From a virus (lineage: Duplodnaviria; Caudoviricetes), in IMG/VR virus record IMGVR_UViG_3300031998_000006, positions 151,311-215,310 of that record: DNA of 64,000 nucleotides; one strand, given 5' to 3'. A program made the position numbers and the translations under genes. The notes under the pieces are model-generated. The model was not told the origin of the DNA, did no database searches, and saw nothing but the letters and a program-made list of their open reading frames with translations. Below, one piece after another: positions 1 to 8,938 of this stretch; position 1 is the first letter of the stretch, and the number at the start of each line of letters is the position of its first letter.

Positions 1-295
1 GTTTATCATATATCATAATAGAGTTGGAAGCATAATATCCCATATTCTCTATCACATCCAGTTTAACGGTCACAATTCCATATTTGTTGTAATCGTTTAC
101 TATTTTAAACCTATTCCCATAGTTTTCTTCTAACCCCTACAATCCATACATTTCTTACCTAGTCACATCGAAACAACCTTACATATCATAATCAACCATA
201 CACCATAGGTTATCAAAATACCCATCTTGAACTTGTACGGAAGGTTTGGTACTTTTAAGTCCTTGTGGCGGTTGCTGTCTATCGTTACATTTGAA

Positions 296-1534
296 CTATC
301 CATGCACTAAAGATGCATGGGACTCCCCTAACTTACACGGACTGTTGTCCGTGATGGCTTCGGGCATTCTCGTTTCATTGCTTCCACGAGCATTTTTAAT
401 GACATCGGTAGGTTCCCTTCCTATTGTCCGTTTAACTCCTAGATACAGAATGTTCTGTGCGGCGTTCACATCCCTATCGTGCTGTGCATTGCATACGGGG
501 CAAACCCACTGCTTTATTCCTAACACAACTTGAGGGTTGATGTTACCGCAATGATGGCACGTCTTGGATGTGTTGTTTGCAGGTACTTTCATAAGGTTCG
601 TCTTGTAGGCTATGTATTGACGAAGCAATCCAAACCCCTGGTCGCCGATGGTCTTCCCGTGTTCTAACTCGGATGCCATTTTGTTCAAATTGACATCTTC
701 CACGAACACATACTGATACTTGTTGGCTAACTCACGGCTTACCTTGTGGAGCCAATCCTTGCGTTGGTTGACTACCTTTTCGTGTAGCCGTGCAACTTTT
801 AGTTTAGCTTTCTGGTAGCGGTGGGATTGGGTTTCCTTGCCTTTGACGAACCGGTTTGACTGAATCTGCTGATACTTTTCCAACTGCAATTCCTTGCGCT
901 TCAAAAATCTAGGACACTTGATTTTCGTGCCATTGCTCAAAGTAAGGAATGAATCGGAGTTGCAGTTCCAGTCTATGCCTACGGCTTTTCCATTCTGTAT
1001 CTTGTTCTGTTCTTCTTTAATATCTACACAAATCGCTACATACCATTTTCCGCTTGCGGACCGTTTAAAGGTAATAGTTTTCCACTTGCCCTTGCAGAAC
1101 TGTGAAGATGCACAGATGGGTATGTAGCCAAGCCTACGAGAAACAAATAATCCGTGAGAATTGATGTGGGCTACATTTCCTTGAATAGTGTACCTAAAGG
1201 AAGCCTTGTTGTTCTTCTTTCTCTTGAAGGTAGGGGGTTGCATAGGCTTTCCCTTGCGAATACCCTTGAGGGATGCAAAGAAATTCGTGTATGCTCCACG
1301 AACATCGCACCATACCTGTCCTAGGGGTATTGAATCCACATCCTTAATCCATTCAAGTGCTTCGGGCTTGAATTTTGCAAATGTGGGCTTGTAGCCCTCT
1401 ATGGGCATTTTGTGGTCTTTGTTCTTGTTCTCAACTACAAGGTTGTAATACAGACGGCAAAGACCAAGTGTTTTGTTGAAGATAGACACTTGTTCCTTGG
1501 TTGGATAGATTCTGTATTCGTATGCCTTGTTCAT
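296..1534 (-). CDS. tnpB: IS200/IS605-family RNA-guided endonuclease TnpB
   Basis: N-terminal HTH (KAYEYRIYPTKEQ), RuvC-I (AVGIDWN), RuvC-II (VFVEDVN), Zn ribbon (TSKTCHHCG...CPVC), RuvC-III (DRDVNAAQNI). Confidence 0.95.
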   Translation of the reverse strand: MNKAYEYRIYPTKEQVSIFNKTLGLCRLYYNLVVENKNKDHKMPIEGYKPTFAKFKPEALEWIKDVDSIPLGQVWCDVRGAYTNFFASLKGIRKGKPMQPPTFKRKKNNKASFRYTIQGNVAHINSHGLFVSRRLGYIPICASSQFCKGKWKTITFKRSASGKWYVAICVDIKEEQNKIQNGKAVGIDWNCNSDSFLTLSNGTKIKCPRFLKRKELQLEKYQQIQSNRFVKGKETQSHRYQKAKLKVARLHEKVVNQRKDWLHKVSRELANKYQYVFVEDVNLNKMASELEHGKTIGDQGFGLLRQYIAYKTNLMKVPANNTSKTCHHCGNINPQVVLGIKQWVCPVCNAQHDRDVNAAQNILYLGVKRTIGREPTDVIKNARGSNETRMPEAITDNSPCKLGESHASLVHG

Positions 1535-1562
1535 TTCTTATGTAAGACTTAAACCTACACTA

Positions 1563-1591
1563 AATATACATAATATTTTATTGATTTGCAA
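1563..1591 (-). promoter_or_regulatory. Sigma70-like promoter for tnpB
   Basis: TTGCAA-17 nt-TATATT. Confidence 0.55.
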
Positions 1592-1649
1592 TAGGTGTTT
1601 AAATAATCTTGGTGCTTTCTCATAGCACTAAAAGTCGTGAGTATTCTCG

Positions 1650-1826
1650 TTACACTTCTATAACTTCTTCATATTCCAAGATAAAGTTTTGATGCCACCA
1701 CGAATTGATAGTTAGGGCATTGTTGCACTTCCCGTTGTTCCAGATGAAGAACGGACCCTTGTCCGCATTCTCTAGCCCGTGGGTGGCGGTAAATCCTATT
1801 CTATTTCTTCTGTGAGCATTATCCAT
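1650..1826 (-). CDS. TRD-like micro-ORF 9 (58 aa)
   Basis: Manual translation: MDNAHRRNRIGFTATHGLENADKGPFFIWNNGKCNNALTINSWWHQNFILEYEEVIEV. Confidence 0.65.
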   Translation of the reverse strand: MDNAHRRNRIGFTATHGLENADKGPFFIWNNGKCNNALTINSWWHQNFILEYEEVIEV

Positions 1827-1978
1827 TGTATTCCGTTCGTCCTCAAGGCATCCGTCTTGAAATTGAAAGGCATAGGTACATAGATAGTTCCATACTCCCC
1901 GGCTATAGGTTCTCCGGGTGTGTTAGCCACGAACACTCTCAAGCCCCTAGACACCTTGTTCAATCCCAACTTACGCAT
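1796..1978 (-). CDS. TRD-like micro-ORF 8 (60 aa)
   Basis: In the ORF track; ends KTDALRTNGIQWIMLTEEIE; TAATG overlap with the preceding ORF. Confidence 0.7.
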   Translation of the reverse strand: MRKLGLNKVSRGLRVFVANTPGEPIAGEYGTIYVPMPFNFKTDALRTNGIQWIMLTEEIE

Positions 1979-2148
1979 TACACTTCCTCAAAAATCAAGA
2001 TGCACGGCTGACCGCATCCGTCGTTCCTCGCACGGTTCAACAGAGTGATGCACTTGCCATTATTTTCCGTGCCACGCAAACTAAATTGAACCATACCATC
2101 CCAGCCAGTGATAGTACCTATCTGGTATTTTGTGTTAGCCGTGTTCAT
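1978..2148 (-). CDS. TRD-like micro-ORF 7 (56 aa)
   Basis: Manual translation: MNTANTKYQIGTITGWDGMVQFSLRGTENNGKCITLLNRARNDGCGQPCILIFEEV; ATGA overlap. Confidence 0.7.
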   Translation of the reverse strand: MNTANTKYQIGTITGWDGMVQFSLRGTENNGKCITLLNRARNDGCGQPCILIFEEV

Positions 2149-2321
2149 TCGTTGCATTGCTCAAGTTCCATCACAAAAGGTCTAGTTCCATTACCATCCC
2201 TACCACCCGTGTAGCTTGCCGTGAAGCATCCCAGCTTACTTTCAGCCGTAGGGGGCAGAATCTTCGTCTTGCCATAAAAACAAGGATAGCAAATTCTCTT
2301 CTCTACTCCACCTCTTCGCAT
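2145..2321 (-). CDS. TRD-like micro-ORF 6 (58 aa)
   Basis: Manual translation: MRRGGVEKRICYPCFYGKTKILPPTAESKLGCFTASYTGGRDGNGTRPFVMELEQCNE. Confidence 0.65.
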   Translation of the reverse strand: MRRGGVEKRICYPCFYGKTKILPPTAESKLGCFTASYTGGRDGNGTRPFVMELEQCNE

Positions 2322-2479
2322 ATCATCACTCTAGTATCAAACTCGAACGAAGTCACTATTCCGCTTGCGGCATATCGTGTAGTAAGGCTATACGATTTCT
2401 CCTGCTCCTTCTGGACTATCAGCCCGTGCAACCTAGTTGTCACGATAGCCACGTTATGCAGTTTGCCCGATTTCTTCAT
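2303..2479 (-). CDS. TRD-like micro-ORF 5 (58 aa)
   Basis: Manual translation: MKKSGKLHNVAIVTTRLHGLIVQKEQEKSYSLTTRYAASGIVTSFEFDTRVMICEEVE. Confidence 0.7.
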   Translation of the reverse strand: MKKSGKLHNVAIVTTRLHGLIVQKEQEKSYSLTTRYAASGIVTSFEFDTRVMICEEVE

Positions 2480-2636
2480 ATTCCAAGATTACCGCTTCGA
2501 TTGACTTTGTATGTGTATAAATGCGATGCCCCGCTAGGAGCGTATAGGACTTGCTCTGCTTGAGTGCAACCCCGTAGAACTTCTCCTTGTGGGGATGGAT
2601 GCAAGCAGCCACGATTACTCTCTTACACTTCCTCAT
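2454..2636 (-). CDS. TRD-like micro-ORF 4 (60 aa)
   Basis: Internal ATG of track ORF 2454..2702: MRKCKRVIV...KSYTLLAGHRIYTHTKSIEAVILEYEEIGQTA. Confidence 0.7.
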   Translation of the reverse strand: MRKCKRVIVAACIHPHKEKFYGVALKQSKSYTLLAGHRIYTHTKSIEAVILEYEEIGQTA

Positions 2637-2796
2637 ATTCCATAATAAAGGGGGTCTGTGTGTGCTGAACGATGCCACAGAGATAACGGCTGATGACCGC
2701 ATAGGTCCTCACGGATTCAGCCGGTCCGTACTCGTTCAAGTGCATCGGACCGTCCTTATATTCCCTTGTTGGGTAGATTAGGTAAGATTTCTTCAT
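2623..2796 (-). CDS. TRD-like micro-ORF 3 (57 aa)
   Basis: Manual translation: MKKSYLIYPTREYKDGPMHLNEYGPAESVRTYAVISRYLCGIVQHTQTPFIMEYEEV. Confidence 0.65.
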   Translation of the reverse strand: MKKSYLIYPTREYKDGPMHLNEYGPAESVRTYAVISRYLCGIVQHTQTPFIMEYEEV

Positions 2797-2932
2797 AGTC
2801 AAGTATGTATGCCCTAGTTCCGAACCCGTCGAAGTTGTGGCTATAGGTTGCCGTCAGGCAATTAACCTTCGTCAATGCGGTCACGGCATTCTTCTCATAA
2901 ACCGACGGATAGATTACAGCCCTTCGCTTCAT
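2756..2932 (-). CDS. TRD-like micro-ORF 2 (58 aa)
   Basis: Manual translation: MKRRAVIYPSVYEKNAVTALTKVNCLTATYSHNFDGFGTRAYILDYEEILPNLPNKGI; ATGA overlap. Confidence 0.75.
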   Translation of the reverse strand: MKRRAVIYPSVYEKNAVTALTKVNCLTATYSHNFDGFGTRAYILDYEEILPNLPNKGI

Positions 2933-3087
2933 TTAACTTCCTCATATTCAAGGATGTAGGCGCGATTGCGGTCATTGCCATAACCCTTGTGGTAGGTCTT
3001 GAGCAACGGGAAGCATTTCCGCTGGAACTCGTCCGGCACCGTAATCTGCCAATCTCTAATGGACGGGAAGCACACCGCCCTTTTCAT
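2929..3087 (-). CDS. TRD-like micro-ORF 1 (52 aa)
   Basis: Manual translation: MKRAVCFPSIRDWQITVPDEFQRKCFPLLKTYHKGYGNDRNRAYILEYEEVK; TAATG overlap with the MTase stop codon. Confidence 0.75.
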   Translation of the reverse strand: MKRAVCFPSIRDWQITVPDEFQRKCFPLLKTYHKGYGNDRNRAYILEYEEVK

Positions 3088-4823
3088 TATGCACCCTTGA
3101 TTCCGTTGGCAAGGAGCTTGTCAACCACCTCGTCCTTGAGGTAGTATTTCTTGTCCACCTCATCTTCGAGGATGTCCTGCAAGAAGATGCCCTTGTCAGC
3201 CGGTTGCGGAATATCGGGAACTACGATACGGAGAAGACCCTGGGTCTTCGTGCGGATGTTAGTCCAGTAGATTCGTCTGCGGTTCTGTGCGGACACGAGA
3301 GCGGAGTTCACGTGGACTCCCGGAATACCGATGGCTTTTGTAAGGACATCCTCCCACTTTTCGCCCATTTCCACATTTTCCAGGAAGAAGAATACATTCG
3401 GGTTCGTTTCACGGACTTCGTGAAGGATTCGCATATACTCCCAGAATAGGAAGGATTCGCCATCAAACTGGAAGCCTTGTTCCTTGAGTTCAAGGTAGCG
3501 TTCAAGGGTGTAAATCTCTTCGTTAGTGGTGGTGTTCATACCATTGCGGCGACCGGCAAAACTGAAATTCGTGCAATTTTTTACGACCACATTTTCAACC
3601 GTATAGGAGTGGTCTTCGTCCACCGTGATATTGTAAACGAGTTGTTCGCCAATGTGGGTGTATTTCTTGACCCCAAACCAAATCTTGTCCTCATCATACT
3701 GCACCTTGCCCTTGACACCCTTGGCATAGTGTATGACATACTGCGGATGCTGATTGACGGTTCTTCCGTCGATTTCCCAAGTAGCACCCCTATCATACAG
3801 ATAGATGTTGGAGTGAACCTTTTCCACATCAAGGATAAGGCGTTGCAGACCGAGGGCGAGATTGTGGCTGACCGTGCAAATCTGCACCTTGTTTCCCTTG
3901 ATAGAACCATCGCCAGAAAGATAACCTTCAAGGAAGGACTTCTTGATTTCATCGGAAGAGTTGAAGATTTCTTCGGAGATGAACTTGTCCATTGCATTGC
4001 AACCGCAATTCTTCTCCGCAAGTTCCACAAGTTTCTTGTTGGAGAACACGATTCGGTAGGTGGACGTGCTATGCGGATAGCAAGAATACTGCAAGGCGGC
4101 AAGGTGGGCTTTCACGTCGTCCAACTTCTTGCTTCCAATGGACAAGATAAGCTGCCAAGCACGAGAACCCTTATGCTTGCCATCAAAACGCAAGTCTTTT
4201 CGGGTATGACCATCAGCTAGATACCTACCAAGAACCCAGGCTTCTTCCAAGGTAATGTCCAAGCCATCGCCATCCACCTTCGGGCGGTTGCTACAGATGT
4301 AGTAATCGTTCTTCAACTTTTCAGCTTCAACCCAGTCAGCCTTACCGAGTTCCAATCTACGAGTACGGGCATCGTTCCTCCATGCAAAGGACTTCTTTTT
4401 AGCCCAGAACTTGTGGTCAGCGGTACACACGATGGGTGCGGAACACTGGGTCTGTACCTCAAAGGTTTCAGCCAGCTTGCATCCGTAATCCACCACGGGA
4501 CGCCAACGGTTCTTGTGGGTAAGCACCAGTTCGCCAAGACGGATGTCTTCAATGTTCTTGTAGCCTTGCTTGGTAAGGACTTTAGTACCGGCTGCGAAGC
4601 ACGGAGAACCGCCAATCAAAAGGTCGATGTGTCCGAGCTTTCGGGCATCAACTTCCGTGACGGACCCTAATTGAATAGTGTCAGGGAAATTCTTCTGTGT
4701 CTGTGCAATGGCGTGCTTGTCAATTTCCGATGCATAGTATTTGTCAATCTTGGCTCCGAGTTCCGTGAGAGCGATTCTCCCGCACGACATACCGTCGAAC
4801 AAACTCAATACTGTAATACCCAT
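3087..4823 (-). CDS. DNA (cytosine-5) methyltransferase, N-terminal catalytic part, intein-containing
   Basis: Motif I LSLFDGMSCG, II EID, IV GGSP|C, VI LENV, VIII QNRRRIYW. Ends without a TRD or motifs IX-X. 236 aa after splicing. Confidence 0.92.
   Translation of the reverse strand: MGITVLSLFDGMSCGRIALTELGAKIDKYYASEIDKHAIAQTQKNFPDTIQLGSVTEVDARKLGHIDLLIGGSPCFAAGTKVLTKQGYKNIEDIRLGELVLTHKNRWRPVVDYGCKLAETFEVQTQCSAPIVCTADHKFWAKKKSFAWRNDARTRRLELGKADWVEAEKLKNDYYICSNRPKVDGDGLDITLEEAWVLGRYLADGHTRKDLRFDGKHKGSRAWQLILSIGSKKLDDVKAHLAALQYSCYPHSTSTYRIVFSNKKLVELAEKNCGCNAMDKFISEEIFNSSDEIKKSFLEGYLSGDGSIKGNKVQICTVSHNLALGLQRLILDVEKVHSNIYLYDRGATWEIDGRTVNQHPQYVIHYAKGVKGKVQYDEDKIWFGVKKYTHIGEQLVYNITVDEDHSYTVENVVVKNCTNFSFAGRRNGMNTTTNEEIYTLERYLELKEQGFQFDGESFLFWEYMRILHEVRETNPNVFFFLENVEMGEKWEDVLTKAIGIPGVHVNSALVSAQNRRRIYWTNIRTKTQGLLRIVVPDIPQPADKGIFLQDILEDEVDKKYYLKDEVVDKLLANGIKGA
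3576..4601 (-). mobile_element. Intein with LAGLIDADG endonuclease (342 aa)
   Basis: Starts CFAAGTKV; block B TADHKF; LAGLIDADG motifs LGRYLADG and FLEGYLSGDG; ends VYNITV...VVKN|C. Confidence 0.93.
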
Positions 4824-4871
4824 TGTATGTTTTTCCTCTTAATGATTGGTTTATTGTTATATAGTTCCACC

Positions 4872-5036
4872 CTAGTCCATCTCCACGTAGTCCATGACCC
4901 ACTGCCGTTCGTGGGAGTGGCTACCGAAATACTTGTCATAGCCCTTTATGAAGTATTTAGCCTTGTTTTCTGTGGGGGGTGGTACGAACACCCCGTTCTG
5001 CCAAGTAGGTTCTACCACGATGGACTTCTTCCGCAT
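4872..5036 (-). CDS. TRD-like micro-ORF upstream of the MTase (54 aa)
   Basis: Manual translation: MRKKSIVVEPTWQNGVFVPPPTENKAKYFIKGYDKYFGSHSHERQWVMDYVEMD. Confidence 0.6.
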   Translation of the reverse strand: MRKKSIVVEPTWQNGVFVPPPTENKAKYFIKGYDKYFGSHSHERQWVMDYVEMD

Positions 5037-5042
5037 CCGGTG

Positions 5043-6524
5043 CTATCTCCTGCTTCCGTATCTTCCACGGCTACCCGTCCGTCTGCCGGTCTGTCGCTTG
5101 GGCATATCTTCATCCCCATCGCCATCCCATTGTTCCTCCTGACTCATATCCACACGGGAAAGGAGTTCGCATTCGAGGTAGGGTCTGCCGATGGCAAGGC
5201 AACTCGTGCATACCACGGAGTCCTGCACGGGAGCGCCATCACGGGTGGTGTTGCAAGCTAGACGAGTGATGCCCCTCTTCCTTTCGGTGGGGGTGTGGTT
5301 AATGGTAATCATCTTCGTGACGTGGGCTACCTTTCGGATGTCTTCGGAAATTTGATTTTCGGCGGCATCTTGTTCGCCACCCACAGTGGCACGACCCGTC
5401 TGCGAAACGGTAGCAAGCATACACTTGCGGGATTGAGCCAAGCCACGGAGGGCTTTCCAGCACTTGTTGATTTTCTCGCGTTCATCGTTGCCGGGACCCA
5501 AGTCCATAATATCCGCATAGTCCACACAGATGACTTCGGGTACAAAGCCCTCATAGACTTCCATATCCTTGAGTTCGGCTTCAAGACCACGGACCGTGAG
5601 AGTGCCGGTAGGGAATGTACGGAGTTCCAAGTGACCCCTACGGCTAATCTTTCGGAATGCCTTTTGAGCCTTCTCGATGCTCTCAACACTTGCATCCACC
5701 CTCTCCGTGGGTTGTCTATCGTCCACGATTCGGGCTGTGCCACCATTGTCATACTCAAATGTGGGCCACGCCACCTCTTCGCCATATCTGGACTTGCCCG
5801 TAAGCATCTGCCAGAATCTACGGACAACTTGCTTTTCGGACATTTCAAGGGAAACATAGAGAACACACTTGCCCTGCAAGGCGGCTTGAGTGGCGATGGT
5901 CATAAGCCACCAAGTCTTACCGCTCTTCGGAGGACCAATGACCGCAATGAAATCTTCACGGATGAACGGACCGATGACACTACCGAGAACACCCGGCATA
6001 GTGAAAATCTCTTCCTCATCGTTGTCGAAAGCACTTGAGATTGTACCGGCATCCCTAAAAAGGTCAACCACCTGTGCCTGACGGATGTCCGGTTTCGTGA
6101 AGTCCGAAACCGCGTGCAAACCTCCCGAAACATCGTTGTTCTGCACGGCACGGTTAATCTTTTCGGCTAGGAGGACCAAGGCTCTCTTTTGAAAATACTT
6201 GATGGCATTTTCCGTGGCAACCGCTTCATTGGAAGGAGTCCATTCTTCGGAGCAGGTGTCCAAGAATGCCTTGACCATCTCCGCATCGGCTTCCTTGAGG
6301 TCGGAAGCCTTGTGCATATAAATATCGCTGATTGTCTTCTGCGGGGCATCCCCATACTTGTCATAGAAGGTAAGAACCCAGTCGGCAACAATCTTGCCCA
6401 TCGTGCTTTCAAACAGGATGGCATCGCAACTCTTCCTACACTTGGAGATGAGTGCGGTGGACATAATCATATTGGACAAGATGATTCGCTCTTCCGAAAA
6501 TTCAATCTTCTCTCGTCTTAACAT
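5043..6524 (-). CDS. DnaB-like (SF4) replicative helicase
   Basis: Walker A GPPKSGKT, SLEM, Walker B ICVDYADIM, VSQTGR. Confidence 0.9.
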   Translation of the reverse strand: MLRREKIEFSEERIILSNMIMSTALISKCRKSCDAILFESTMGKIVADWVLTFYDKYGDAPQKTISDIYMHKASDLKEADAEMVKAFLDTCSEEWTPSNEAVATENAIKYFQKRALVLLAEKINRAVQNNDVSGGLHAVSDFTKPDIRQAQVVDLFRDAGTISSAFDNDEEEIFTMPGVLGSVIGPFIREDFIAVIGPPKSGKTWWLMTIATQAALQGKCVLYVSLEMSEKQVVRRFWQMLTGKSRYGEEVAWPTFEYDNGGTARIVDDRQPTERVDASVESIEKAQKAFRKISRRGHLELRTFPTGTLTVRGLEAELKDMEVYEGFVPEVICVDYADIMDLGPGNDEREKINKCWKALRGLAQSRKCMLATVSQTGRATVGGEQDAAENQISEDIRKVAHVTKMITINHTPTERKRGITRLACNTTRDGAPVQDSVVCTSCLAIGRPYLECELLSRVDMSQEEQWDGDGDEDMPKRQTGRRTGSRGRYGSRR

Positions 6525-6597
6525 TACAAAATACCTCTAGTAGCATTACAAATATAGGACGACCCTAGTATATCTGTACATAGATGGGGGCATCTCA

Positions 6598-6786
6598 TCA
6601 CAGTTCCTCATAGAGCAGAACCTTAATGCGGTTGCCAGAACCCTCGCTTGCCTTTAGAGCGTAGCACTTGCCACGGGGGTCAACCACATTCTGCTCGAAA
6701 TGCCATCCGTACATAGTCATCCCCTTCAAGGGAGTAAGTATCTGGCTTACCCCGCTGAACGGCATATCCTTGTCACGTTCCGTCAT
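6598..6786 (-). CDS. TRD-like micro-ORF (62 aa)
   Basis: EQNVVDPRGKCYALKASEGSGNRIKVLLYEEL resembles the C5-MTase TRD consensus. Confidence 0.65.
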   Translation of the reverse strand: MTERDKDMPFSGVSQILTPLKGMTMYGWHFEQNVVDPRGKCYALKASEGSGNRIKVLLYEEL

Positions 6787-8938
6787 TTATCCGCAATCCC
6801 CTACGCTCTAGGAGTTCTGTAAGTAAGTCGGAAGTTGCGGTTTCCTTGCCATCAAGAACCCCATCAAGCATCTTGGCACGGCTATCCAACACTTCAATCG
6901 CATCCATATCCACAGTTCCAGGGGCTACGAGATAGTAAGAGGTTACTGAATTATGTTGTCCTGAACGGTGCAAACGGTCCTCCGCCTGGCGATGATAATT
7001 TGGAGTGTGCGAAAATTCAGCAAATGCCACGTCGGAACACACATCTTGAAAGCCGTCGATACCTACACCACCAGCTTGAATGTTAGCCACAATTACCCTA
7101 CACTTCGGGTCTTCAATGAATTTTAGTCGGGCATCCTCACGCTCATTTGTGGACATACCCCCATAAATAATTGCGGGATGCCATTGCTTGAGAGTATCGT
7201 ATAAAACCTCAACTACGGAACGGTGCCAAGCGAACAGAAGCAACTTCTTACCGGATTCAAGGAAGTCCTCAATCCACAGAAGCATAGACTTTTCCTTGAG
7301 GGCATAGGCTGAACGGAGAAGACCGGCAACTTTAGCCCTAGCGTTCTCCTTTCCACTCTTGCTAGTGTTTTCGGAGAATACTTCCCGTTCCTCTTCGTAG
7401 TAATCGTTCATTGCGGATTCGTCAACTTCCAAAGGTACAACTTCCATAATCTTTGGGGGTAGGTCCTTCATCACTTCCGATTTGGTTCTGCGGAGCATAC
7501 ATCCAACTAGCAGTTCGTGGAGTTCTTCAACATTAGATGCCCCATTGTACTTTGTTCCATACTCGTCCGTCTGCGGGTCGCAATAGCGGTTGCAGAAGAA
7601 GAAATAATTCTTGAACTTGGACGGTTCCACGATATTGAGCAGAGTCCAGAACTGGAGTGGTTTGGACATAGCCGGTGTACCGCTCATCCCGATGCAATGG
7701 GGGATGACCTTGGACAAGGCAACGAATGCCTTGGACCGCTGCGACTTGTAGTTGCCGATGGCTTGTACTTCATCGCCAACCAACAGACGGAATCCTACTT
7801 GTGCAAGTTCATCCTGCCAGTCGGCTAGGATGTCCCAGTTGATAATGTAACTCTTGTCGTGTGCAAGCCTATAAGTCTTTCTGCCCCCGATGACTTCCAC
7901 ATCGGGATAGTGCTTCTTGGTTGCACCTACCCACTTGCGATAAGCACCTTGCCATTGCAATTTCGTTGGGGCATTGACCACATAGAGTGCTGGATAGGCA
8001 TTGGCATAAACCATCCACGAGAGCGCTTCAACGGTTTTACCGCAATTATGCACGATAATGTGGTTGGCTACAAAATTCCCGTGATTGAGAACCTTGACAT
8101 CGTAGGTCATTCTCATCCCTGCGGAATGAATGGATGTAACTTTCGACATAAGCATACCTTTAGTGCCGTCAAGCTGCACATAGGCATTCAAAGTGTCCTT
8201 GACCTCCACCCATCCGTTGTCCGTAAGAACCTTATGGTCAGGGGTTGCGATGAGGTACATCCCGTCCTCGAAAGTCACGTGGACACACCGCTTCAAACCA
8301 CTATGCAAGACATCAACAACCTCACCAAATCCCATAGAGTGACCATCGTTGACAAGGCATTGAATGCTCCAGTCACACTTGTCCTTGGTCTTGGCAAATT
8401 CACGATAAAGGGTTTCAAGGCTAATCTTCCGTTCCTTGCCATCCTTGCGGACAACAACGGTCATATCGCCACAGACGCATCCCATCTCGTCGCCGAGGGC
8501 AAGTCTTCCGTGACGGAGCTGTGCGAACTTGAGGAAGTCAATCTGGTACGGACGAAGACCCGGAATCAAAGTTCCTTCGGGGTCTAGCTTCGTGGCGTCG
8601 ATTAGAGCCTTTTGCTTGATTCGTGGGTCTTCTCGCTTTACGGTGGGGTCTTTCTTCGTAGGCTGGGGCCATCCCGAAGCAAGCATCCACTTCTGCGTAC
8701 CGGCATTCCACGGAATCTCCCACTTTTTAGTTGCGGCATTGTAGGAGCGTTCCGGGAGCTTGCGGATGGCTTCTAGGATTGTCTTCCATCCATCCTTGTT
8801 TCGTGTGAGCCAAGTGAGGGCAACGGTGGTTTCCTCAACGTCCGTGAACTCCGCTACATACTTTACCCCGGCGATAGGCTCAAGGGGTTTGGGCATACGG
8901 ACCAACGAATTTTCCAATTCAAAAAAATCAAAAGCCAT
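6773..8938 (-). CDS. SNF2/SMARCAL1-like helicase with mini-intein
   Basis: LRPYQ, DEMG|CGKT, DEVQ, SGTP, LRRTK, QAEDRLHRSGQ. Confidence 0.92.
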   Translation of the reverse strand: MAFDFFELENSLVRMPKPLEPIAGVKYVAEFTDVEETTVALTWLTRNKDGWKTILEAIRKLPERSYNAATKKWEIPWNAGTQKWMLASGWPQPTKKDPTVKREDPRIKQKALIDATKLDPEGTLIPGLRPYQIDFLKFAQLRHGRLALGDEMGCVCGDMTVVVRKDGKERKISLETLYREFAKTKDKCDWSIQCLVNDGHSMGFGEVVDVLHSGLKRCVHVTFEDGMYLIATPDHKVLTDNGWVEVKDTLNAYVQLDGTKGMLMSKVTSIHSAGMRMTYDVKVLNHGNFVANHIIVHNCGKTVEALSWMVYANAYPALYVVNAPTKLQWQGAYRKWVGATKKHYPDVEVIGGRKTYRLAHDKSYIINWDILADWQDELAQVGFRLLVGDEVQAIGNYKSQRSKAFVALSKVIPHCIGMSGTPAMSKPLQFWTLLNIVEPSKFKNYFFFCNRYCDPQTDEYGTKYNGASNVEELHELLVGCMLRRTKSEVMKDLPPKIMEVVPLEVDESAMNDYYEEEREVFSENTSKSGKENARAKVAGLLRSAYALKEKSMLLWIEDFLESGKKLLLFAWHRSVVEVLYDTLKQWHPAIIYGGMSTNEREDARLKFIEDPKCRVIVANIQAGGVGIDGFQDVCSDVAFAEFSHTPNYHRQAEDRLHRSGQHNSVTSYYLVAPGTVDMDAIEVLDSRAKMLDGVLDGKETATSDLLTELLERRGLRINDGT
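8045..8479 (-). mobile_element. Mini-intein (145 aa) in helicase Walker A
   Basis: Starts CVCGD, has TPDHKV, ends TYDV...IIVHN|C; no endonuclease domain. Confidence 0.92.

Follow-up and report, generated by a model that had tools for sequence, protein, structure and literature searches.

How does a phage cytosine methyltransferase choose its targets when the gene for its catalytic part stops before any target-recognition domain (TRD)? Such a gene lies in the 64,000-nucleotide (nt) stretch analyzed here (the window), the final 64 kb of IMG/VR virus record IMGVR_UViG_3300031998_000006, a tailed-phage genome of 215,310 bp rated complete by CheckV; the sequencing runs that contain the phage are bovine gut metagenomes. 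All genes of the methylase locus lie on the minus strand, in the order catalytic core, nine short open reading frames (ORFs), insertion sequence (IS), seven more short ORFs, and an ORF for motifs IX-X. We consider it probable that the locus encodes a multispecific C5-cytosine methyltransferase (C5-MTase) whose TRDs are supplied in trans as micro-proteins. Such a split design probably enables a single enzyme to guard the phage's DNA from numerous restriction enzymes of its hosts.

The core ends shortly past motif VIII, at a TAATG overlap with the first short ORF, and carries neither a TRD nor motifs IX-X. An initial annotation, made from the letters alone, had already read it as a methyltransferase with motifs I-VIII that ends before the TRD, and both the PF00145 match and an alignment of this core with 17 intein-less cores from related phages (60-88% identity) agree. 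Motif I is present as LFDGMSCG at core residues 8-15, inside a PF00145 match spanning residues 4-75, and its F9-G11 is invariant across the 18 aligned cores, as are E482-N483-V484 of motif VI and Q513, R515, and R517 of motif VIII. The same alignment places the insertion point of a predicted intein in motif IV (PC), between GGSP74 and the catalytic Cys417; P74 and C417 are contiguous in the 17 relatives and separated by the intein here. The insert, bordered by C75 (intein position 1) and C417 (the +1 nucleophile), is absent from those relatives, and the core also matches the Hint_2, LAGLIDADG_3, Intein_splicing, and Hom_end_hint families. Inteins usually have His as the penultimate residue; this one has Lys. 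The core of a sister phage, L004, is 236 amino acids (aa) long and has no intein. One sequencing run (X5) contains a weak joint of depth 2.9 (side 38, intervening letters unread) where 1,309 nt around the intein are skipped; this joint was not used as support for an intein-free allele. A nearby SNF2-family helicase gene is also intein-bearing (Intein_splicing match at residues 260-298; 721 aa here versus 588 aa in the homologue of phage L005), which makes this an operon with two intein-bearing genes.

The motifs that the core lacks lie beyond the window. When the complete record was searched with PF00145, a match appeared at genome positions 149914-150147, about 1.16 kb past the window start, so the motif IX-X fragment that had been expected beyond position 1 was located there. 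The subunit carries RRLTPTECARLQ (motif IX) and GNGW (motif X), its PF00145 score is above the cut-off, and its ORF is separated from the last short ORF of the array by a 36-nt gap holding two stops. The locus is therefore broken between motif VIII and motif IX, and in place of the single polypeptide of a C5-MTase at least three polypeptides would be needed.

Sixteen short ORFs, here called units U1 to U16, sit between the core and the IX-X ORF: nine in the window (52-60 aa, positions 1650-3087) and seven beyond the IS. Two more (S1 and S2) are detached upstream, giving 18 units of 52-64 aa in the genome (Table 1). The nine overlapping ORFs that the initial annotation had listed from the TAATG onward are correct in their coordinates, all on the minus strand, and all begin with ATG; its estimate of about 11 specificity units was too low, and its gapless array holds in the window down to position 1650 and fails for the array as a whole, which is interrupted by the IS and continues for seven units beyond the window start. 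The units differ widely from one another, with 14-40% identity to U1. The K-x-x-x-L segment and EYEE-type C terminus that they had been said to share recur across 57 sequences, in which the Lys is at least 90% conserved and the consensus C terminus is ILEYEE. A family hidden Markov model (HMM), which includes the 18 unit sequences and is thus circular for membership and informative just for absence elsewhere in the genome, was run against 4,661 six-frame genome pieces and matched 17 units at E values of ≤8e-4 and U8 at 0.066, with the next piece at 1.2; by this HMM S1 and S2, proposed earlier as members, fall in the same family. An HMM built from this genome's units alone matched related loci only on the coding strand and upstream of the IX-X gene.

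At the core-to-U1 junction and at all 15 unit-unit junctions, an ATG overlaps the upstream ORF by 1 to 41 nt, and the frame offsets are mixed (eight of one kind, eight of the other), each unit being a separate ORF. In 7 of the 15 unit-unit junctions, the TAT-GAR codons that encode the upstream Y-E-E tail contain the ATG, and YEE of one frame thereby becomes MK/R-K/R in the next. MK/R-type starts and YEE tails are also seen where no such overlap exists; for example, U1 follows TAATG, U2 follows ATGA, and U9 and S2 have such tails. These features therefore look like properties of the proteins and not just by-products of overlap. In phage L005 the start of one unit is a TTG within the codons TTT-GAA, which belong to an F-E-E tail. 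A different 59-aa frame, which lacks TRD features, opens at the ATG within the EYEE of U12.

Direct comparison places several units in the variable region of C5-MTases. Over residues 342-384 of P0037, which has 449 aa and end-to-end PF00145 coverage, U12 shows 63% identity; U13 shows 49% identity to the stretch immediately preceding motif IX (residues 281-335) in a PF00145 protein of 392 aa. U7 and U14 match the stretch before motif IX of other long open frames; for U7 this is residues 228-265 of a 367-residue frame that runs into motifs IX-X, with the core of that locus (L061) in a separate frame. Searching 1.84 billion representatives with a profile yielded 36 matches at E values of ≤1e-3, 31 of them to proteins of at most 100 aa; three of the 36 (P0016, P0025, and P0035) are long repetitive proteins judged unrelated by eye. 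Fused forms are found as well. P0006 (323 aa) has five tandem TRD modules running into motifs IX-X in one chain, P0022 is another multi-TRD chain, and in phage L007 a single frame joins the U9 orthologue with a second TRD and motifs IX-X. The cultured Bacteroides phage F2 (MT806186) encodes a 269-aa core and a 194-aa chain with three TRDs and motifs IX-X (L085 2617-3201), which makes it a candidate for a cultured two-chain multispecific methylase; GenBank annotates just the last 66 codons of the 194-codon ORF as methyltransferase and leaves the preceding 485 bp unannotated. These comparisons point to the units as TRD homologues, directly for part of them.

Docking was examined for U2 in a model of four chains, each with its own alignment: the N-extein (1-74) and C-extein (417-578) of the core, the IX-X subunit, and U2. 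U2 reached a median ipSAE of 0.80, versus 0.36 for the best of three controls; 58 of 80 solved complexes attain the mark for this score, as do 2 of 110 mismatched pairs, counts that are rough here (own alignments, four chains). Model runs agreed in at least 69% of contacts, with partner pLDDT of 61-78. In the model, the contacts of least error join U2 residues 41-46, the hydrophobic strand before the acidic tail (within the contact range 40-49), to the VRVLGIRRL stretch that immediately precedes motif IX in the IX-X subunit (residues 29-37); the K-x-x-x-L segment of U2 (residues 20-31) to core residues 512-516 (motif VIII); and U2 residues 2-7 to the C-terminal tail of the core (570-577). U2 is thus predicted to dock in the canonical TRD position, as support and not proof, in a complex of spliced core, IX-X fragment, and micro-protein of the kind that the initial annotation had proposed to model.

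To place the locus among its relatives, we compared the best 80 of 422 loci matched with the motif IX-X piece as query; 42 encode single-chain enzymes, 32 have the core and motifs IX-X in different frames, and 6 are cut off. Exploded arrays like this one occur in three divergent phages: L004 (a 215.7-kb phage with five units and one detached), L005 (17 units, 16 with ATG and one with TTG starts), and L007 (four HMM matches, total units uncounted). Unit content and order vary between phages. The orthologue of S1 (49% identical) is the first unit of the L005 array, and that of S2 (76% identical) lies inside it, with 10/6/32 differences at the three codon positions; U9 and its L005 orthologue differ at 8/1/25. 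Third positions carry the most differences in all 17 orthologous unit pairs compared, counts given because the synonymous rate (dS) is saturated in 14 of them; the nonsynonymous rate (dN) is 0.09-0.63, and dN/dS is 0.07-0.14 in the three computable pairs. The layout is conserved and the units are under purifying selection, so that the proposed comparison of arrays across related phages finds the layout kept and the content varying.

The changing frames are not assembly errors, since no indels are among the differences listed for the array in any compared run, including run X3, whose array is about 99% identical. Among the differences listed between near-identical strains, 7 of 12 in units are synonymous and none creates a stop, and 17 of 19 are synonymous in the core, DnaB-like, and SNF2 genes. 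Relatives with one continuous ORF had been named in advance as an indication of decay or assembly frameshifts. They exist (the 42 single-chain loci above) and are not a sign of decay, because they have fewer TRDs and coexist with conserved split arrays.

What, then, is the IS doing in the middle of the array? It sits exactly at the U9/U10 junction, bounded by TTATA on both sides, and has the marks of an IS200/IS605-type TnpB element: it encodes TnpB domains, it lacks a long target duplication, and run X3 holds the empty site. In that run, from a different sample and study, an 11,023-nt contig joins both flanks, skipping 1,694 nt with five shared letters (TTATA) and about 99% identity on either side of the IS site. 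In the empty allele the U10 start falls inside the EYEE codons of U9; in the IS-bearing allele the right end of the element provides a new in-frame ATG for U10. In run X11 contigs end at the IS border with none bridging it, and that run was not used as evidence. No tnpA was seen within the element, and no omega-RNA or other RNA matched Rfam at an E value of ≤1 in L002, the extracted segment that covers the right-hand part of the element only. A second tnpB copy at genome positions 132932-134169, outside the window, is 83% identical over the ORF only and has unrelated flanks. Directly after the tnpB stop, where there is an ORF at 163-303, the IS holds a 59-nt copy of the 5′ end of U10, the original of which flanks the IS on the right. 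If the guide RNA of TnpB starts at this copy, the element would be guided to the starts of TRD units; alternatively, the copy may be old flank carried along from an earlier insertion in a U10-like unit.

To the extent that sequence evidence can decide, the split catalytic scaffold with many separately encoded TRD micro-proteins that the initial annotation proposed is supported. We infer from it an enzyme of at least three kinds of polypeptide: the core (motifs I-VIII), the 106-aa tail subunit (motifs IX-X), and any one of 18 micro-proteins. The units would be translated separately and successively by coupled initiation, each ATG overlapping the end of the previous ORF, and the core would become active once the intein splices out of the PC motif. 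The spliced core and the tail subunit would then assemble in trans into a catalytic framework whose small domain is completed by one micro-protein at a time. The C-terminal hydrophobic strand of the unit, with its acidic tail, would pair with the strand preceding motif IX in the tail subunit, its K-x-x-x-L segment would lie against motif VIII of the core, and its N terminus would touch the C-terminal tail of the core. If the units differ in specificity, mixed holoenzymes would methylate many motifs and so shield phage DNA from many restriction systems. In a fuller version, to which we incline slightly, free micro-proteins, each about 55 aa long, form a library and dock reversibly, by strand addition, on the split scaffold, giving 18 specificities from one enzyme, with single ones gained, lost, moved, or fused as independent genes; the TnpB element, at a unit junction and with a copy of a unit 5′ end, may home into junctions and help shuffle the library.

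Several observations weigh against an enzyme built in this way. Direct TRD homology covers just 4 of the 18 units (U7, U12, U13, and U14), and none of U3, U4, and U11 has a relative among the 80 loci (P0029 resembles U4 in alignment A4). The similarity to C5-MTase variable regions anticipated for the units thus emerged for four of them by direct comparison and did not appear in profile searches: a Pfam scan of the 18 units gave no relevant family (one GidB match, E value of 0.18), and the unit profile gave one chance match (0.95) against PDB sequences. That family and structure-sequence profiles are blind here is unsurprising, because the region is hypervariable. Some C termini are deviant, U13 ending in LVLVCADADD and U6 in MELEQCNE. 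A close relative of U13, P0020, has LVLVYVEE at the corresponding tail, and U13 may be altered at both ends. The complex model covers one unit (U2) of 18, and its pass may reflect likeness to solved single-chain C5-MTases, with its own alignments and a job unlike the calibration of the tool. The IS lies upstream of seven units and the essential IX-X gene, so it might have a polar effect. RNA run X20 yielded two contigs with part of the intein region only and 0.06 of sampled words, possibly DNA carry-over, and is neither for nor against expression of the array. Finally, no experimental precedent was found in the literature for a three-part C5-MTase with a free TRD of about 55 aa.

Other explanations account for parts of this picture. 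The free ORFs could be a silent library of TRD cassettes, a recombination reservoir from which only fused forms work, with few or no micro-proteins taking part in catalysis. Array content does differ greatly among otherwise similar phages (L004 has five units in another order), units shift between array and detached positions (S1 and S2 versus L005), and fused forms exist. Here, however, neither the core nor the IX-X piece carries a fused TRD, so the enzyme would have none, even though both pieces are intact and conserved; a reservoir also needs neither an ATG at every junction nor conserved docking termini, and we regard it as unlikely. A different way to keep the TRDs in one or a few long chains would be programmed frameshifting at the junctions, a classical multispecific enzyme in disguise. 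Shifts of both kinds would be required (8 and 8), several of them within 1-4 nt of a stop codon (TAATG, ATGA), and no slippery heptamer was seen at the junctions inspected. Each unit keeps its own ATG (TTG once in L005), which frameshifting does not need, and the core, last unit, and tail would still be separate, with the 36-nt gap and its two stops before the IX-X ORF. The stereotyped junctions, 7 of 15 of which put the next frame inside TAT-GAR, do speak for frameshifting, as does the fact that tandem TRDs in a single chain are a known phage solution according to PMC12707154; we nevertheless hold it to be very unlikely.

That the locus is a decaying methyltransferase pseudogene, with frameshifts, IS, and intein, or an assembly artefact, in either case without present function, would fit the interruption of the array by the IS and the 42 of 80 related loci that are single-chain. 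The breaks, however, coincide exactly with module borders, a start codon is present at every one, the layout is repeated in divergent phages, and third-position bias goes with low dN/dS. An independent assembly shows no indels among the listed differences, an IS-free allele exists, and the complex model passes; this explanation is highly improbable. A multispecific methylase with TRDs supplied in trans is more consistent with the data than these three, because of the start codon at every junction, the lack of a TRD fused to the conserved pieces, and the selection signal.

Multispecific C5-MTases are known from temperate Bacillus phages (M.SPRI, M.phi3TI, and M.rho11sI; Trautner laboratory), with up to about 4-5 TRDs. 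Like this locus, they have one framework, several TRDs between motifs VIII and IX, and a presumed anti-restriction role, and the fused-TRD relatives described above (P0006 and phage F2) are of their kind. Here, in contrast, each TRD is its own 52-64-aa ORF with a start codon, 18 in all, the catalytic framework is split in two, and the TRDs are not contiguous in one chain. M.AquI is a natural two-chain C5-MTase whose large subunit holds motifs I-VIII together with a portion of the variable region and whose small subunit holds the rest and motifs IX-X; natural two-chain enzymes and fragment complementation indicate that C5-MTases tolerate such breaks (PMC3404938). The likeness to this locus is a C5-MTase made from noncovalently assembled pieces, as predicted here, and a break between core and motifs IX-X is present in phage F2 and in 32 of the 80 related loci. 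Enzymes of the M.AquI type consist of two pieces with one specificity and a TRD covalently attached to a conserved piece, whereas the TRD here is free of both pieces and comes in 18 alternative versions. Type I HsdS is similar by analogy only, as a separate specificity polypeptide that docks on a methylase and in which module exchange changes the target; it differs in its N6-adenine chemistry, unrelated fold, and build (two TRDs and coiled coils in about 400 aa). Searches of the full-text literature, whose coverage was without REBASE and most subscription journals, found no account of arrays of separately encoded TRDs.

Table 1. Features of the methylase locus, as predicted from sequence. Positions are those of the window unless marked as genome or L002 (G000:C1:148414-151647, same strand, which includes the part of the array beyond the window start).
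Feature	Position	Strand	Size	Remarks
IS200/IS605-type TnpB-only element	-35..1658 (genome 151275-152968)	-	1,694 bp	Exactly at U9/U10 junction
tnpB gene	296..1534	-	412 aa	OrfB_IS605, Cas12f1-like_TNB, and HTH_OrfB_IS605 matches
Copy of U10 5′ end	232..290 (genome 151542-151600)	-	59 nt	80% identical to genome 151217-151275 (L002 2804-2862), blastn
Motif IX-X subunit	L002 1414-1734	-	106 aa	Outside window; PF00145 profile positions 252-318, E value 1.8e-9
TRD unit U16	L002 1771-1956	-		Outside window
TRD unit U15	L002 1919-2101	-		Outside window
TRD unit U14	L002 2079-2246	-		Outside window
TRD unit U13	L002 2233-2427	-		Outside window
TRD unit U12	L002 2421-2600	-		Outside window
TRD unit U11	L002 2572-2736	-		Outside window; no relative in 80 loci
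TRD unit U10	L002 2708-2875	-		Outside window
TRD unit U9	1650..1826	-	58 aa	Orthologues 82% (L005) and 78% (L007) identical
TRD unit U8	1796..1978	-	60 aa	54% identical orthologue in L004; weakest HMM score of 18, E value 0.066
TRD unit U7	1978..2157	-	59 aa	61% identical orthologue in L004
TRD unit U6	2145..2321	-	58 aa	
TRD unit U5	2303..2479	-	58 aa	
TRD unit U4	2454..2636	-	60 aa	ATG inside EYEE of U3; no relative in 80 loci
TRD unit U3	2623..2796	-	57 aa	ATG inside DYEE of U2; no relative in 80 loci
TRD unit U2	2756..2932	-	58 aa	Used in complex model; 51% identical relative in L007
TRD unit U1	2929..3087	-	52 aa	Family HMM E value 1.3e-17
C5-MTase core subunit	3087..4823	-	578 aa including intein	Motifs I-VIII; PF00145 E value 5.8e-20
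Predicted intein with LAGLIDADG homing-endonuclease domain	3576..4601	-		Core residues 75-416
Detached TRD unit S1	4872..5036	-	54 aa	Between DnaB-like helicase gene and core; HMM E value 4e-15
Detached TRD unit S2	6598..6786	-	62 aa	Between SNF2 helicase and DnaB-like helicase genes; HMM E value 5.4e-9
SNF2-family helicase gene	6773..8938	-	721 aa	Intein-bearing
Conserved ORF	L002 337-1407	-	356 aa	Immediately downstream of IX-X gene

The 356-aa ORF that follows the IX-X gene is conserved in L004 and L005. A promoter and terminator scan of L087 gave 10 terminator-like sites against 8.5 expected, which is chance level, and its sigma-70-like sites were uninformative, the phage probably infecting Bacteroidota.

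If the micro-proteins work in trans, each would be the smallest known free-standing DNA-specificity subunit of a methyltransferase, and together they would form the largest specificity set served by one C5 catalytic framework. For engineering cytosine methylation at specific sites, the arrangement would be a natural scaffold of the plug-in type. The units also belong to a class of micro-genes that annotation can miss, as with the ORF of phage F2 that is annotated for 66 of its 194 codons. For the phages themselves, specificity would be evolving by gene-sized modules and not by domains within a chain; the arrangement would also account for the way in which large phages of gut and rumen deal with restriction-rich hosts.

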